45,506 nucleotides of DNA from a virus (IMGVR_UViG_2563366923_000008:1-45506), one strand, 5' to 3'; counted from the stretch's first letter, positions 2,835-20,313 are shown. Notes: a model not told the origin generated them from the sequence alone. Translations and numbers: made by a program.

Positions 2835-5800
2835 TTATGCCTGAGTACGCAGCGCTTCAAGGCGGCGCAGGTCGAAGTCGTTCAGTTCGTCGGTGTAGTC
2901 AGCAGTGATTGGCGCTGGCCATTCACCTGTGTCGAATCCGGTTGCGATATTGCGCATCGCTTTGCGGTACTCGAGCATACCCAGCTCCAGTAGTTCAGCG
3001 GATGCCTCGATGATGGCGATCCAGTGGTAGTTCTCGTCTTTGTTGACGAAAATCCAGAAGAACTGATCCAGCGCTGCGGTTTCGCAGTACATAGCCGCGC
3101 TCAGGTGATAATCACGTTCAATAATTTCCCGGTGTAGCCTGGCGCGCAGGCTTTCCTGCTTAACATTCCACATGCTGATGGTTTTCAGGTCTGCACCTAT
3201 ACGCACGCCATCCAGGTCGATCTCAAGGTCAGGGCGCACACGAACTTCCAAGCCCGTCTCCTCGTCAAAACCAAAGTAGCTCACCTCAACGGCTCGGCTA
3301 GGGTGGGTCAGCAGCATGCCGGCGGTCGGGTGTGCCAGAAGCGCTTTTTGAATATTCAGCGCGGTGCTCAGCTGCTGGCGGGTGACCAGCACTTTTCCTT
3401 CCGGGTTATCGCGCCAGGCATCCAGCAGTTCGTCGGCAAATACGGCATCTGGTTTGACTGCCTTCACGGCCTGGATCATGTCTGCTTTGGTACCGGACAC
3501 TTTCAGTGGTGCCGGTTTCTGTGCTTCCTGAGCCACAAGGTCAGGGTTGATGATTGCCAACTGCTCCAGCAGCGCGTCACGGCTGCCGCTGGTTTTAACC
3601 GGCGGCGGCAGGGTGGCGTTGTACTCTTTAATGCATGCCTTCATTGCCGTCGCCGTCTGCTTCTGGTCACCATCAATACGCTGGAAGTCAGCTGGCAGCG
3701 CCATATAGTTCTGTGCCGTTTCTTCCAGGTTAGCGCCAAGCGGAACCTGCGGCGGCAGGGTGGCGTTGTACTCTTCCAGTAACACCTTGATGTCGTCGGC
3801 AGACAGCAGCGCCGGCAGGCTGGCATTGTGCTCATCGATAAAGGCGCGCAGGGTCGCGGCCGTTGTGAATGCGCCTTCAGGGATCACCGGTTCAACGCTG
3901 AATTCTGCGTCCAGTAGTTCAGGCTGCAACGCCAGCGCATGCACCAAGTTGCCCATGTCCAGCACCGCTGAGCGCTCTTTGACGATGGTTTTCTCTACGT
4001 GGCGCGCATTGAAGTACATCAGCGAAACGCGCGCATCTTTCACCTGGGTTGAGCTGATGCCGTTGGCGGCGTGGTAAACCTCGTTTGGCAGCCCTTCATA
4101 GCGGCCTGGCTCGAAATAAGCGGGATAAACAACAGCTGGTTCGTCAGATTGCGCTTCTGGCTCGGTTTGTGCTGCAACTGGTTCGGTTTGGCTTACAGAA
4201 TCGCTATTTTTGGCGACAGAATCCGTATTCTGGTCTACATCGTCCTTCTGGCTGGTATCTGACTCTTCACCAGACTCCAGACTGCTTTCGCCTGGCTGTA
4301 CTTCATCACCAGCTTGTTTTTCATCACTGACAGTTTCTTGAACCTGCACATTGCTGGTGGTCTCCGTAGCCTTTTTCGTGCCATGAGTTGCTGAGTTCTG
4401 CAGCAAAGCCGTAACGTCGAATATTCCGTTGCCGACATTTTTAACCAGTTCTTGTTCGACTTTCTGCGGTTGTGCTGCCGCTTCCTCTGCGCGGCGGCGT
4501 GCTCCTTCTTCACGCACGCGTTGCAGGTTCTCTTCGTGAGTGCAGAAGGATTTGCGCGGAGACTCCTTACCTTCAGGTTGGGGAATTTCCTGTGCTGCGG
4601 GTTCAGTCTCATGCAACGGCAATAACTCGACCGCGGAATTGAACGCGGCTGTCATGGTCTGGTTAACAAATTCCAGGTGAGCGACAGGAGTTAAATGAAT
4701 ATTTTCCGGTGCGATACGTACCAGGTTAAAAATAGCCGTGCGGTTAACACCCAGAACGCCTGGCTGATTGCGCAGGATGTTGCTCCATGATTTCCATGGT
4801 TCTTCTTTTTTGGTCACGATTTCTTTAGCGCGACGAAGAATGCTGCCCGGGATCTCGAAGTGGTTGAAGTCCATAGGCAGAAGGGCACACGCAATCTCTA
4901 AATCGAGAGTGTCCAGTGTGTGGTGTGCGTCAGGTCCACGGTCAGTGACGTAACCGCCGTCGGCATTAGTGCCGGAATCAGTACGCTGCACACTACTGAT
5001 GCGATTACCGGCGGCCCATTCGCGAACGAGGATACCGCGGTCGATGTGATCTGTAGCGAACCACAATTTCAAAAACTGGATTAAGGTTGCGAGTTCAGGG
5101 ATTTTTCCATCGACAGGGAAGACTTTCTTAACGGCATTCACGACTTTATGAATATCGTGCTCAATGGCTTTTTTGAATGCTTCCACATTCTCAGCTGCCA
5201 GCAGCAGGTTCTGGACGTACGCGTCATCGGTGTCCATCTCAAGGCGGACAATCTCATTTTTCTGCCCTGCGTCGATGTGATAGAGATATTCACCATCACC
5301 GATGAACTGAGCCAGTACGCGCTGGCGGAATGGCAGGGTGGCAACAACGATCAGGTTCGGTTGCTGTGTCTGCTGGGATTGCTCTTCGGTATCGACTTCA
5401 CCATCAACGACGCCACCTTCTGCCCGGCCGTTCTCGTCGGTCTGGATACCGTCCTCAACAGTGAGATCTTGACCCGTTGTAACGTCAGCAGCGTTGCTGG
5501 TTTCAGTTTTGAGCAACTGCAACTTACCACTGCGCCAGTCTTCTACCAGTTGATTGCGGTCACCGGCATCGGTGTTCACCCAGTCAGACATGAATGCAGC
5601 GATCAATCTTGGTTCGTGCTCTTCGTCTGGTGTGAAAATGTCCTTAACCGCCCGAATCATTTTCCACTCAGCATTCAGGCTGAGTTTGGCGGTCGCGGGC
5701 ACATCGTTCCTTGCCACAAGCAGGCTATGGAGATATGTATTGCCTTCATCTAGTGACATTTCGCTGGCAGCCAACTGCTGCTCTTTAGTGACGTGGGTTT

Positions 5801-16288: not shown

Positions 16289-16647
16289 AACAATATCGCA
16301 TTTCATTACCCTGGCCGCCAAGCAACAACCGCTACTACCGGCACAACCGGGGACGCACACACATCAGCGCGGAAGGGCAGGCATACCGCGACAGCGTCGC
16401 CAGAATCATCAAAGACTCGATGCTTGATATCGGCCTGGCCACGCCATTGAAAATCCGTATTGAGTGTCACATGCCGGATCGCCGGCGCCGTGACCTGGAC
16501 AATCTGCAAAAGGCAGCATTCGACGCCCTGACGAAATCGGGTTTCTGGCTCGATGACCAGCAGGTTGACTACTACAGCGTGAAGAGAATGCCTGTCGTCA
16601 AAGGTGGGCGGCTTGAGCTAACCATTACTGAAATGGAGTCCGCATGA
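16285..16647 (+). CDS. rusA: Holliday-junction resolvase RusA
   Basis: [42 protein letters not shown]...[19 protein letters not shown]...[10 protein letters not shown] is near-identical in pattern to E. coli RusA. Confidence 0.85.
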
Positions 16648-16784
16648 GCCGTGACGTTATCGAACGCATCCGCGACCGCTGGCAAAAGCTTCGCCTCCTG
16701 CGTAGCCGCGGCACCGTGCTGGTCGACTACAAAATATTACGCAATTTCGTCCGTATCTATAAGCGCCTGGGAGAAGCAGCATGA
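16644..16784 (+). CDS. Small protein (46 aa), YlcG-like position
   Basis: ATGA overlaps at both ends (rusA stop and Q start); [46 protein letters not shown]. Confidence 0.35.
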
Positions 16785-17470
16785 CAGCTCAATACTTGGA
16801 ATTTGTTCGCCAGCAGCTGATAGTGGCCACCGCCGATCTGAGTGGTGCGACGAAAGGGCAACTGGTAGCTTTTGCAGAGAACGCGCAATTTACCGCTACG
16901 GCGCGCAGCCGTGGCCGGAAGAAGGTGTATAGCGAGGTGAAGCAAAAAATGGTTAACCCGGATGGACCGCCGATGAGCGGCAGCCAGTCCCGCGCTAAGG
17001 GTTCCTCAATCGCTCTCGTTCTGCCCGTTGAATACTCGACAGCCAGCTGGCGCCGCGCCCTCCTGTCGCTGGAAGACCACCAGAAATCCTGGTTGCTGTG
17101 GAACTACAGCGACAATATCCGCTTTGAGTATCAGGTAGCGATAACACAGTGGGCATGGGAAGAATTCCGTGATCAACTCGGCGCTAAGAAAGTGGCCGGC
17201 AAGACGATGGAGCGGCTGAAGAAACTGATATGGCTGGCGGCACAGGACGTGAAAGCAGAGCTGGCGGGTAAGTATGTATATCAGCACCAGGACCTTGCAG
17301 CCCTGTGTGGCGTTAAGCCTGATAACTGGTGCCATAACTACGCTGATTACTGGCGGGCTATGTGCGCCATTTTTAAGCGGCTTGATAGCGACTCTCTTCT
17401 CTGTGCTGTGAGAACACGATCACAACAAAAAGCGACTTTTTCGCAGCAGGGTCTTGCAAAAGTCAATTAA
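16781..17470 (+). CDS. Putative late antiterminator Q
   Basis: 229 aa directly upstream of the PR'/tR' region and lysis cassette; call is mainly positional. Confidence 0.6.
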   Translation: MTAQYLEFVRQQLIVATADLSGATKGQLVAFAENAQFTATARSRGRKKVYSEVKQKMVNPDGPPMSGSQSRAKGSSIALVLPVEYSTASWRRALLSLEDHQKSWLLWNYSDNIRFEYQVAITQWAWEEFRDQLGAKKVAGKTMERLKKLIWLAAQDVKAELAGKYVYQHQDLAALCGVKPDNWCHNYADYWRAMCAIFKRLDSDSLLCAVRTRSQQKATFSQQGLAKVN

Positions 17471-17559
17471 ATACGTCATATTTGAGTCTACTTTGATATG
17501 CTGCCTTAACTTTAAGTGGCGGCATGAAGATGATAGTCATATACCAGTTTGTAAAATTA

Positions 17560-17586
17560 GCCTCGGCAATCCGCCGGGGCTTTTTT
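17560..17586 (+). terminator. Rho-independent terminator downstream of Q
   Basis: GCCUCGG-caauccg-CCGGGGC (one G-U pair) followed by UUUUUU. Confidence 0.4.
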
Positions 17587-17723
17587 ATGCCTGCGATCCG
17601 GTCAGGGCTCTTGGGTAGAGACGTGCTGCACGACACGTCAAAGCCCTTCCGCGCAGAGCCCTGAACCAGATTGAAGTTACTCAGCAATAAGAAAACTGCA
17701 TGTCATCATTTGCTTATATCTTA

Positions 17724-17753
17724 TTGACCAGAAAATTAACATGTTGTTAATCT
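17724..17753 (+). promoter_or_regulatory. Candidate late promoter PR'
   Basis: TTGACC (17724-17729), 18-nt spacer, TAATCT (17748-17753). Confidence 0.45.
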
Positions 17754-17759
17754 ATTCGT

Positions 17760-17923
17760 GTGGTGAATCCCCCTATGCGGAGGGGCGACCAGTCAAACTT
17801 TTTTGTCCAGGTTTGTTTGCGCGGAACTAGTCGGCTGGGGCTGTTCCACCGGGAGGCACCCGGCGCCACCTCCTTGACGGTATTGTTATTTTTCATGCCT
17901 GTTCGTCCGAGCAGGCTTTTTTT
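17760..17923 (+). ncRNA. Putative short PR'-initiated, tR'-terminated transcript (lambda 6S RNA analogue, Q-modification target)
   Basis: Promoter at 17724-17753 and strong terminator GCCTG-ttcgtccgag-CAGGC plus T7 at 17897-17923; no convincing ORF between them. Confidence 0.3.
17897..17923 (+). terminator. tR'-like Rho-independent terminator
   Basis: GCCTGttcgtccgagCAGGC followed by TTTTTTT. Confidence 0.55.
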
Positions 17924-18332
17924 GCCCGCATTATCTTCATTGAAAACTGGCAACTCAGAGAATCATCCAAATTAAAAAAGCAGCAACGAGAGCGATTACT
18001 AATACATTCTTCGCTTTTTCTCTTCTGCTGGCCTTCACAAAAGGATTCACTATCCGGCAGTGGCTACACACAAGTGATTCTGGGTTAATTAACTTTCCGC
18101 AGTAGGGGCAGGGCTTGATAATCATTGGTACTAATTAAGTTGTGAGAACGTAGTCTCATTTAACCACATTTATCGAGTTGTTTTACTAATGGTCTAGTTA
18201 TTTCAGACATATTCATCAATTTCAGGCTCACGGGAATCATCCGCTACGTGCTTTGTTGATAAATCCAGCCCGTGAAGCCTGACCCTTTTCAAACACACAC
18301 ACAGCGCCATCCGAAAAATCGGAGGTGAGGCT

Positions 18333-18610
18333 ATGACCAGAATGAGCACCATTTACAGCAGACTTTCATATGGAACAGGAACCACGCTGACCGCTGCGGT
18401 GTATCAGCGAAGGCATATGCCGAAACAGCTAAAACAGCAAAAGAGGTGTCCTGGATGTTGGCCGACAGAATTGCAGGGTTAAGCCTGAGCGACTGGGCAA
18501 TTATTGTCGGTATCGCATGCACTGTTATTACCTGTGCAGTGAACTGGTATTTCCGCTGGAAAGAACGGGAGGATCGGCGCAATGGCTATGCCACCAAAGC
18601 TGAAGAATAG
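18333..18610 (+). pseudogene. Pinholin (S21-like class II holin) interrupted by a 47-nt insertion, leaving two small ORFs (18333..18482 and 18455..18610)
   Basis: Frame A gives MTRMSTIYSRLSYGTGTTLTAAVY... (SAR/TMD1-like); frame B gives [42 protein letters not shown]... (TMD2 plus basic tail); deleting 18405-18451 restores one S21-like frame. Confidence 0.5.
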
Positions 18611-19154
18611 CGTTATTGCAGCGATACCCGCTGGCGCTATTGCTATCGCTGCGGCGTTGATTACTGGCCCAACGGGTAATGATGGCCTTGAAGGTGTACG
18701 CTATCAGCCTTATCGGGATGTTGTTGGAGTGTGGACTGTATGCTGGGGCCATACTGGTAAAGATATTATCCTCGGCAAGACCTACACCAAAGCAGAGTGC
18801 CAGGCGCTGCTGGATAAAGACCTGAATATTGTCGCCCGACAGATTAACCCATATATCAATGCTCCGATCCCCGAAACGATGAGAGGGGCGCTGTACTCAT
18901 TTGCGTATAACGTAGGCGCGGGAAACTTCAAAACCTCCACACTGTTACGAAAAATCAACCAGGGTGATTCGAAAGGCGCATGCGAACAACTGCGGCGCTG
19001 GATCTATGCTGGTGACAAACAGTGGAAGGGTTTAATCACGAGGCGTGAGATTGAGCGTGAAGTTTGCCTGTGGGCAGAGAAACCTCAGGTTCTGGGGGAT
19101 GGACTCGGGCCGCTTAACCCTGGCATTCCGGTATCAGTTCCGGGGGTATTCTGA
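18582..19154 (+). CDS. SAR endolysin (GH24 lysozyme with N-terminal signal-anchor-release domain)
   Basis: N-terminal [26 protein letters not shown] then [19 protein letters not shown]...[13 protein letters not shown]; near-colinear with phage 21 R from memory; start may be ATG 18588. Confidence 0.85.
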
Positions 19155-19696
19155 TGAAACCCAGAAAAATTACGATTGTTGCGGTTCTGCTGGTGGCTGT
19201 CGTAATCATTATTGCAGTGCTTAGCGTATTACTGGTTCGTAGCCGCTCAGCTCTTGAAACAGAACAGAGTGAGAATCGGGTATTACGTAATGATAACGCG
19301 CTGCAGGCGACGGTGATAACTACACAGGCTTTCAACTTCAATCGGTTTAACCAGATAGCAGAGAACGCCAACCGCCTTAACTCGCTGATCGATGCCGGTA
19401 CTGAGAAAACTGTCATCGAATACCGGGAGATTCTCCGACGTGAAAAGACCTGTGATCTGCCTGTTCCTGCTGATGTCGCTGGTGGGCTGCTCAAATACGC
19501 GTACCGTTTACGTGCCAGCGCAATGCACCCCGATACCGGGAACACTAACGCAACCGATGATAGTACCGCTGCCGCCAGCTCAATGACGTATTGCCAGGCC
19601 GTCCTCTGGATTGAACCTTTGCTGGCAACGATAGAAAAGGGTAATGGCAATTTTTCCGGAATACGGGAAATAGAGAACGTAAGAGCCTCGCAATAG
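19154..19696 (+). CDS. Rz-like i-spanin
   Basis: 180 aa with N-terminal TM helix (IVAVLLVAVVIIIAVLSVLLV) and coiled-coil periplasmic domain; embedded +1-frame lipoprotein ORF. Confidence 0.75.
   Translation: MKPRKITIVAVLLVAVVIIIAVLSVLLVRSRSALETEQSENRVLRNDNALQATVITTQAFNFNRFNQIAENANRLNSLIDAGTEKTVIEYREILRREKTCDLPVPADVAGGLLKYAYRLRASAMHPDTGNTNATDDSTAAASSMTYCQAVLWIEPLLATIEKGNGNFSGIREIENVRASQ
19392..19586 (+). CDS. Rz1-like o-spanin lipoprotein embedded in Rz
   Basis: Lipobox LVGC followed by a Pro-rich mature peptide CSNTRTVYVPAQCTPIPGTLTQPMIVPLPPAQ; start uncertain (ATG 19392 or GTG 19440). Confidence 0.6.
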   Translation: MPVLRKLSSNTGRFSDVKRPVICLFLLMSLVGCSNTRTVYVPAQCTPIPGTLTQPMIVPLPPAQ

Positions 19697-20148: not shown

Positions 20149-20313
20149 ATGTCATTTTTCGATTATGCAATGCAGCGTGTTGGGCTTGCAGCCAATACGA
20201 CTGTCATGTGCCCGATATGCGGACATAAATCCACACACTCGACCACGAAAGTACGCCAACAACAGGCGTTACTTTGCCCTAAATGTAAATCTCTGTTTGT
20301 CATTCACAGGTAG
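20149..20313 (+). CDS. Small zinc-ribbon protein (54 aa), stand-alone moron
   Basis: MSFFDYAMQRVGLAANTTVMCPICGHKSTHSTTKVRQQQALLCPKCKSLFVIHR; own extended -10 promoter (TGgTATAAT 20111-20119) and a perfect terminator. Confidence 0.5.
   Translation: MSFFDYAMQRVGLAANTTVMCPICGHKSTHSTTKVRQQQALLCPKCKSLFVIHR

Follow-up and report, generated by a model that had tools for sequence, protein, structure and literature searches.

We analyzed a stretch of viral DNA of 45,506 nucleotides (nt) (IMGVR_UViG_2563366923_000008:1-45506), the whole of which is referred to here as the window, and focused on the gap at 17930-18330, which lies between the gene for the Q antiterminator and the lysis genes. The region around this gap reads as the late-control and lysis region of a lambdoid prophage (Table 1). 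On the minus strand of the gap, antisense to the late operon, lies a 56-codon gene whose pattern of substitutions reveals purifying selection. The gap is probably a compact accessory insert, or moron, that encodes a small inner-membrane protein expressed in the lysogen.

Table 1. Features of the Q-lysis region, in coordinates of the window
Feature	Position	Strand	Basis or remark
Q antiterminator gene	16781-17470	+	Pfam PF06323, 268 bits
Q-holin interval	between Q end 17470 and holin ATG 18333		862 nt
First intrinsic terminator after Q	17559-17590	+	Terminator scan; 9-bp stem, 7 GC pairs, T-run
STnc100 prophage small RNA (sRNA) gene	17728-17927	+	Rfam RF02076; convergent with the 56-codon gene
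STnc100 terminator hairpin and T-run	17897-17923	+	Terminator scan; end of the Rfam model
Hairpin common to the convergent pair	17897-17916		38 nt beyond the stop codon of the 56-codon gene; no U-run when read on the minus strand
56-codon gene	17955-18125	-	Open reading frame listing, substitution pattern, synteny
Predicted parts of its product	residues 1-56		Zinc ribbon with four cysteines (Cys4; C6, C9, C20, C23); NPFVKA, 27-32; basic stretch, 33-40; hydrophobic helix, 41-56
Promoter-like block	18158-18186	-	GTAAAA, 17-nt spacer ending in TGG, TTAAAT
Leader hairpin element	18218-18286	+	Fold, covariance model; opens the lysis-gene leader
Small hairpin sequestering the holin Shine-Dalgarno sequence (GGAGGTG)	18305-18327	+	Fold; just before holin ATG 18333
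Class II (phage 21/HP1-type) holin gene	18333-18610	+	Broken by a 1-nt deletion near 18393
Signal-anchor-release (SAR)-type lysozyme gene	18582-19154		PF00959
Rz-like gene	after the lysozyme gene		Lysis cassette

Much of a preliminary description of this locus agrees with our analysis. The gap is AT-rich (41.4% GC, compared with 51.2% for the whole window), and it holds no plus-strand open reading frame (ORF) of its own of 25 amino acids (aa) or more; a spurious plus-strand ORF (17760-17975) reaches into it only with its tail. Translation of the minus-strand ORF matches exactly the 56-aa peptide that had been quoted, no Shine-Dalgarno (SD) sequence is found in the 20 nt before its ATG (...CACAACTTAATTAGTACCA-ATG), and the inverted repeat described ahead of the lysis genes is present, with CAGGCTCACGGG (18224-18235) pairing with CCCGTGAAGCCTG (18270-18282). 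Other readings have to be changed. The gap had been called noncoding, but its 56-codon ORF is conserved as a protein and is under purifying selection. The hairpin and T-run at 17897-17923 had been labeled tR', but they form the terminator of the STnc100 sRNA gene. The inverted repeat is not peculiar to this locus: at least 120 viral contigs and 42 deposited phages have it as a conserved leader hairpin before holin genes, and the ORF is missing from most of them. A transfer RNA (tRNA) scan of all 45,506 nt of the window returned zero tRNAs, and an Rfam scan of both strands of 16500-19500 at permissive E-values returned no match inside 17930-18330 and only STnc100 just upstream.

A 56-codon gene antisense to the late operon

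Is the minus-strand ORF a gene? An ATG-initiated ORF of at least 56 aa arose in 20% of dinucleotide shuffles of the region; since its length is within chance, the case for the ORF rests on conservation. Relatives are few. A protein database of 5.8 billion clusters yielded only eight (from E. coli, Citrobacter, and Salmonella), and IMG/VR yielded 25 further loci with the ORF. Together they represent nine distinct alleles in three groups, namely, the type found in the window (56 aa), a second subfamily, B (59 to 61 aa, ∼54% identical), and a 63-aa Citrobacter form, with the reading frame intact in all nine. Within the window type, the more diverged pairs of sequences had ratios of nonsynonymous to synonymous substitution rates (dN/dS) of 0.14 to 0.26. 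Variable columns were distributed 19/19/42 over the three codon positions, which places the share at third positions (42 of 80) ∼3.6 standard deviations above one-third. The frame of the ORF was the sole stop-free frame; every other frame had stops in both sequences compared.

Comparison between subfamilies revealed that synonymous sites are saturated (proportion of synonymous differences [pS], 0.78 to 0.98), while the proportion of nonsynonymous differences (pN) is ∼0.2 and 54% of residues are kept. For the window allele and subfamily B, pS was 0.83 to 0.98 and pN was 0.20 to 0.27, with the Cys4, NPFVKA, basic, and hydrophobic pattern retained. All alleles keep the pattern M-I-x-[KR]-P-C-P-x-C-G-x-L-I...C-x-H-C-x-x-x-N-P-F-V-K-A, followed by a basic run and a hydrophobic tail. 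In a Salmonella prophage, DNA similarity to the window is limited to 18134-17935, that is, the ORF with 9 nt upstream and 20 nt downstream. These comparative data show that 17955-18125 is a real gene under purifying selection, fixed in position and patchy in presence. The preliminary description had named lack of conservation as grounds for discarding the ORF; the ORF is instead conserved, and selected as a protein, in prophages of E. coli, Citrobacter, and Salmonella.

Other searches for the gene were less productive. A blastn search with the ORF matched no deposited phage genome, and a tblastn search with the peptide against 50,697 phage records returned only zinc-knuckle noise (best E = 0.07), including HNH endonucleases of T5-like phages; on this basis, we do not regard the ORF as the remnant of an HNH endonuclease. 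Of two scans of genome contigs, the first was empty and the second gave only zinc-knuckle matches of 19 to 25 residues in unrelated metagenome-assembled genomes. The DNA of subfamily B was not found in complete E. coli genomes.

What might the gene encode? Sequence-based and structural predictions suggest that its product quite probably combines a zinc ribbon with a C-terminal membrane helix. The four cysteines (C6, C9, C20, and C23) and the NPFVKA motif are invariant. In the AlphaFold2 model (predicted local distance difference test [pLDDT], 82), beta hairpins formed by residues 1 to 26 carry the cysteines and residues 28 to 55 form one long helix. Kyte-Doolittle hydropathy reaches its maximum, 3.1, at residues 41 to 55, and the 13 residues before the hydrophobic helix include five basic residues and one acidic residue. 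By the positive-inside rule, the basic flank of a membrane helix lies on the cytoplasmic side, so the zinc ribbon is predicted to be cytoplasmic and the protein to be tail anchored, with nothing beyond the membrane.

Pfam places the protein close to DUF2116 (PF09889, "probable treble clef"; E = 2.5e-5, model positions 6 to 56 of 59), with a score of 24.6 bits that falls below the gathering score of 26.8. The predicted layout is that of DUF2116, with a Cys4 ribbon or treble clef and a C-terminal hydrophobic segment in ∼60 aa. DUF2116 is matched by 7 of 11 relatives and look-alikes at E ≤ 0.01 (best, 9.7e-6), and two homologues carry the NCBI name "DUF2116 family Zn-ribbon domain-containing protein." On these sequence matches, we describe the protein as DUF2116-like, a near miss and not a certified member of the family. 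NCBIfam has no family for it (the Lar restriction-alleviation model matches only residues 3 to 11, E = 0.7), and PHROGs gave only a partial match to a family of unknown function. In PADLOC-DB, no model identified it as a defense protein; the only match, to a homing-endonuclease model, was at the level of a zinc knuckle (residues 4 to 25, E = 9e-4, 17 bits). A HMMER pass over 1.84 billion representatives returned, besides the family itself, mostly multi-zinc-ribbon proteins that match at their knuckles only, together with about a dozen small proteins that are organized in the same way and carry a (D/N)PF motif. NPFVKA itself is confined to the small clade and a few of these look-alikes.

We then considered how the gene might be expressed. 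The best-conserved upstream noncoding block on the ORF strand, TAAAACAACTCGATAAnTGTGGTnAAAT, resembles a promoter. It is identical at 25 of 27 positions between subfamilies, whereas the synonymous sites of the ORF are ∼90% different. In subfamily B, the homologous block reads TTAAAA-17-TAAAAT with a TG extension (TGnTAAAAT) and was called by a neutral promoter scan. A transcript starting ∼7 nt downstream of the block would have an A/U-rich leader of ∼26 nt without an SD sequence and, 38 nt after the stop codon, would meet the STnc100 terminator hairpin from behind. These sequence features slightly favor the view that the small gene has its own promoter and is expressed in the lysogen.

We also observed that the upstream block as a whole (18126-18217) is far better conserved between subfamilies than the synonymous sites of the ORF, which are ∼10% identical. 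The alleles of the ORF behave like old cassettes exchanged between conserved linkers.

The slot between Q and the holin

In every locus, the small gene lies between Q and the holin gene, antisense to the late operon. In most loci, ∼205 nt separate its start from that of the holin gene; in two lineages, the distance is 650 to 760 nt and an sRNA gene is inserted between them. Neither neighbor is constant. The Q genes beside the ORF belong to three unrelated families (PF06323, PF03589, and PF06530), and the holins belong to at least three types (PF16080/PF04971; PF05106; and PF16931 with PF05449). Of 69 E. coli genomes with this lysis leader, 10 carry the ORF, as do 12 of the 120 viral contigs listed with that leader, in which it keeps a fixed distance from the leader hairpin. 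Lysogens with the window allele include E. coli KL53, FAM21845, NCTC9040, and MS 115-1. Elsewhere, the same slot is occupied by a terminator, by tRNA and HNH genes, or by a different antisense gene of 136 aa. The proposal in the preliminary description that the Q-holin interval serves as a cargo slot is thus borne out by related prophages, which carry other antisense cargo there.

Both kinds of cargo in the slot, the small gene and the 136-aa gene, are directed away from the holin. If a promoter between the late terminators and the holin is active in the lysogen, it must face away, because it would otherwise drive lysis. With its orientation, the small gene can be expressed in a lysogen without driving the lysis genes.

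The 136-aa gene was seen in E. coli EH09-18-41 (locus L042, 1952-2362), where it encodes a coiled-coil-like hypothetical protein (WP_016063448.1) with no Pfam or PADLOC match. In the same locus, a plus-strand terminator abuts the leader hairpin.

STnc100 belongs to the known sRNAs of prophages. The family is related to PasD (bioRxiv 10.64898/2026.05.13.724894), and its presence between Q and the lysis genes of Stx2 phages has been reported (PMC12370729). In the window, it was matched over its full length (model positions 1 to 206 of 206) at 85.2 bits, compared with a gathering score of 47 (E = 4e-18). STnc100 also adjoins the ORF in loci L001, L003, L005, and L021. In the window and in the E. 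coli and Citrobacter loci, STnc100 is found between Q and the ORF, whereas a Salmonella prophage (L006) has it between the ORF and the holin (3467-3673); the subfamily B loci lack it. The sRNA gene ends 31 nt short of the stop codon of the ORF and does not overlap the coding sequence. A relic of the hairpin common to the convergent pair (GGACGAACAGG) follows the ORF in subfamily B loci, where STnc100 is missing.

With 17897-17923 assigned to STnc100, the true tR' is probably the terminator at 17559-17590, because it is the first terminator after Q and because E. coli L042, with the same Q/pR' sequence, has a different terminator at the equivalent position. Just after this probable tR', the segment at 17577-17673 contains a perfect 10-nt inverted repeat (17602-17611 and 17655-17664, 43 nt apart). 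It is 90 to 100% conserved in many Klebsiella phages, has no Rfam match, and is possibly a further structured element in the pR' leader.

The lysis-gene leader

The inverted repeat before the lysis genes folds into a hairpin with a 12-bp stem, one bulged A, and a 34-nt loop; because of the bulge, a gap-free repeat finder missed it. A 19-nt stretch of the loop was found in at least 120 IMG/VR viral contigs, and the 121-nt leader matches 42 deposited phages, including HK225, mEp237, Gifsy-2, and many Klebsiella lambdoids. Among the 120 viral contigs listed, 90% of those carrying the hairpin are without the small ORF. With a covariance model, the hairpin was located in all related loci, Salmonella included, immediately before the holin; subfamily B loci contain it twice. 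In most phages, the hairpin starts immediately after the T-run of a terminator. The leader hairpin is an element separate from the small ORF, and it marks a recombination boundary of the lysis module.

Compensatory variants keep the stem, as seen between Klebsiella phages GZ7 and Mulock and in Salmonella UPF_BP1 (C-G to U-A). In the model-fitted alignment, 92.7% of cells were paired, and four pairs (nine cells) showed double-sided changes, compared with 3.2 ± 1.4 after shuffling (reached in 1 of 500 shuffles). The covariation score on this alignment was exceeded in 0 of 500 shuffles; the alignment was fitted to the structure and its sequences are related, so this covariation is suggestive and not proof. 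In a pattern-selected alignment, the covariation signal was weak. These sequence data suggest that, at its 5' edge, the lysis-gene leader probably has a structured RNA formed by this hairpin. Rfam has no family for it, and nothing relevant was returned when the literature was searched for published accounts of a structure in the holin leader or for a helper-embedded satellite att (attachment) site.

Other readings of the hairpin were rejected. With a loop of 34 nt and without an adequate U-run on the plus or the minus strand, it is unlike an intrinsic terminator. A 49-aa minus-strand ORF that covers it (18203-18352) was judged spurious, and the antisense 39-aa coding sequences annotated over it in Klebsiella phages (L002, 1960-2079; L164, 270-389) are probably annotation artifacts; in both cases, the arms evolve by compensatory changes.

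In two loci (L024 and L028), the leader hairpin is duplicated (2390-2458 and 2840-2908) and the copies bracket a match to isrI (RF01392, 2497-2593) and a small ORF, with cspA-like genes nearby. This duplication suggests that the hairpin can act as a recombination linker for the insertion of cargo. A (CA)n tract between the leader and SD hairpins (∼18287-18300) varies among loci in a manner that looks like slippage and is 2 nt longer in the window than in otherwise identical relatives.

Closer to the holin, the small hairpin that sequesters the SD sequence is kept before unrelated holin families, which implies a recombination junction at the start codon. In phage lambda, an RNA structure known as sdi lies in the leader of the holin gene S. 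The leader described here is similar in that a structure includes the SD sequence (18305-18327) and in that the holin has the Met-x-x-Met look of a dual start. It differs in having a second, larger hairpin (18218-18286) ∼50 nt upstream of the start, with a conserved 34-nt loop and no Rfam family. The holin begins with M-T-R-M, which resembles the dual-start motif of holin/antiholin pairs.

The holin gene of the window is broken. Over 16781-19626, the window is identical to loci L013 and L017 except for the holin deletion and the 2-nt change in the (CA)n tract. The deletion (GACCG-CTGCGG compared with GACCGGCTGCGG) splits the gene into ORFs of 49 and 54 aa, and the holin is intact, with 92 aa, in all relatives. 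Either the prophage is lysis defective or the assembly is in error at this point. Beyond the lysis genes, a plus-strand ORF of 54 aa (20149-20313) carries two CxxC pairs (MSFFDY...CPICG...CPKC...) and is another candidate for a small zinc-ribbon protein.

A probable accessory gene and its possible role

Our preferred interpretation, which we consider probable, is that the gap is a compact accessory moron located between the late terminators and the lysis-gene leader, encoding a lysogen-expressed, tail-anchored inner-membrane protein. A moron is an independently expressed insert in a phage operon (PMC2629481). The gap resembles one in its patchy presence at one junction and in a base composition unlike that of its flanks (41.4% versus 51.2% GC). 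The small gene would be transcribed leftward from its own AT-rich promoter block, head-on to the Q-dependent late operon and convergent with STnc100. The Cys4 ribbon and the basic juxtamembrane helix that starts at NPFVKA are predicted to be cytoplasmic, with the last 16 to 17 residues spanning the membrane. After induction, Q-modified late transcription would collide with that of the gene and pair with its transcript as antisense, and so silence it. The protein may hold or block a partner on the cytoplasmic side of the membrane, through either sequestration of a regulator, in the way that DanI antagonizes its own, or exclusion of superinfecting phages by interference with a step of infection at the inner membrane. 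This last step is a guess drawn from analogy, and we think it rather unlikely to be right as it stands.

Lambda bor and the lc/nmpC porin gene are lambdoid morons near the lysis region that are expressed in the lysogen. The small gene resembles them in its patchy presence at a fixed junction, its lower GC content, its expected independence of (and orientation against) the late operon, its predicted envelope product, and the alternative cargo found in its slot. It differs in being much smaller, in encoding a predicted tail anchor with a cytoplasmic zinc ribbon and not a lipoprotein or a porin, and in being known here from sequence alone. HK97 gp15 and P22 SieA are small inner-membrane proteins of prophages that exclude superinfecting phages. 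They share with the product its small size, predicted single membrane pass, probable moron origin, and expected expression from the prophage. In contrast to the small protein, they have no zinc ribbon; no similarity in sequence or fold was found between them, and exclusion is hypothetical here. SieA is mentioned in the literature on morons (PMC2629481).

The only functionally studied DUF2116 protein that we found is DanI, a 69-aa antagonist of the LytTR regulator DanR from a pathogenicity island of uropathogenic E. coli (bioRxiv 10.1101/2025.06.10.658900). DanI is encoded on a mobile element and has an autonomous promoter (bioRxiv 10.1101/2025.06.10.658900). Like DanI and DUF2116 proteins in general, the small protein falls in the range of ∼55 to 70 aa, is encoded on a mobile element, and is predicted to have an N-terminal CxxC...CxxC ribbon followed by a hydrophobic C-terminal segment. 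Unlike DanI, it has no LytTR regulator encoded beside it, and its gene is located in the late region of a prophage and not in a pathogenicity island.

Several observations weigh against the interpretation of the gap as a moron for a lysogen-expressed membrane protein. With regard to the gene, RefSeq has no annotation for the ORF in any of the 10 carriers among 5,426 complete E. coli genomes, and no conserved partner gene adjoins it across the loci examined. With regard to expression, the hexamers of the window allele are weak (GTAAAA/TTAAAT, T at -11) and lie below the thresholds of consensus scans, so that no promoter was called; an SD sequence is absent from every family member, and a terminator scan found no intrinsic terminator on the minus strand. 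With regard to the protein, the AlphaFold2 model was built on an alignment of only nine sequences and has a predicted template modeling score (pTM) of 0.39, the hydrophobic segment of the window allele is only 16 to 17 residues long, and the DUF2116 score remains under the family threshold. A PDB sequence search and Foldseek returned nothing significant (best, generic NZF/RanBP2 zinc ribbons, E ∼ 0.5), and a search with models of defense systems gave no meaningful match. The three look-alikes that could be placed are located in a genomic island, in a conjugative element with BrnTA, and on a short contig, with no common neighbor.

Could the elements of the interval work together? A broader reading treats the small gene, STnc100, and the leader hairpin as a lysogen-active guard before the lysis cassette, with a partnerless inner-membrane effector. 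Head-on transcription would keep leaky late transcripts out of the holin, and the tail-anchored zinc-ribbon protein would represent a previously unrecognized class of prophage effectors that exclude superinfecting phages or sequester a regulator of the host or phage. We consider this combination improbable.

Another reading assigns the gene mainly a role in cis and gives the peptide second place: in the lysogen, head-on transcription would damp leaky read-through from pR' into the lysis genes. The invariable antisense orientation beside the holin leader is consistent with such a role, as are the antisense orientation of the alternative cargo and the conservation of the promoter block, which exceeds that of the synonymous sites. 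In addition, most phages without cargo have a terminator directly before the leader hairpin, suggesting that insulation is needed at this point. However, a purely cis function leaves the strong purifying selection on amino acids unexplained, and 90% of the listed phages with the same leader manage without the gene. A cis effect could coexist with a role of the protein; as the main function, we consider it quite improbable.

Equally doubtful is a type I toxin-like membrane peptide that is silenced by antisense RNA, either the 3' end of STnc100 or the late mRNA, and that serves prophage maintenance or abortive infection. The type I toxin-antitoxin peptides Hok, TisB, and Ldr are small membrane peptides, and the product shares with them a length below 60 aa, one strongly hydrophobic helix, the lack of a strong SD sequence, and an adjoining sRNA gene, here on a mobile element. 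The gene is convergent with the sRNA, the two have a hairpin in common, and the relic of this hairpin persists where STnc100 is gone. However, STnc100 stops before it reaches the coding sequence, so that at most the untranslated 3' ends could overlap, and its linkage to the gene is not fixed, since it lies on the other side in Salmonella and is missing from subfamily B. Moreover, known type I toxins do not resemble a protein of which two-thirds is predicted to form a conserved zinc ribbon and basic helix in the cytoplasm.

A role as a lysis regulator, that is, an antiholin-like or holin-binding membrane protein of the adjacent cassette, is suggested by the predicted single membrane pass and the ∼205-nt distance to the holin start in most loci, but is very improbable for a gene on the opposite strand that is not coexpressed with the late genes, that adjoins at least three unrelated holin families, and that is missing from 90% of the listed phages with the same holin leader. 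As improbable is a chance open frame in an AT-rich spacer whose real content would be only regulatory RNA or DNA (terminators, sRNA, and leader hairpin): the frequency of such frames in shuffles, the missing SD sequence, the lack of a called promoter or terminator in the window, and the missing RefSeq annotation fit a chance frame, but a dN/dS of ∼0.2 in this frame only, a protein pattern kept across saturated synonymous sites, nine intact alleles, and a Salmonella prophage that shares the ORF itself only argue against it.

Taken together, our data describe the small gene as a probable lambdoid moron for a largely unannotated, DUF2116-like zinc-ribbon membrane protein (as predicted), which amounts to a correction of annotation and not to a new kind of system. 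The standard pipeline overlooks a gene under clear purifying selection in all complete E. coli genomes in which it occurs, which shows how many small membrane proteins of prophages stay invisible. The Q-holin interval of lambdoid phages also houses Shiga toxin genes, tRNAs, and sRNAs. Our map of this interval runs from one or more late terminators through optional cargo that faces away from the lysis genes to the leader hairpin, the SD-sequestering hairpin, and the holin. The leader hairpin, which is present in well over a hundred phages and belongs to no Rfam family, is a candidate regulatory RNA of lysis timing. If the protein acts in the lysogen, whether by exclusion, by sequestration of a regulator, or by insulation of lysis, it would add a minimal effector of 56 residues to the repertoire of lysogenic conversion.

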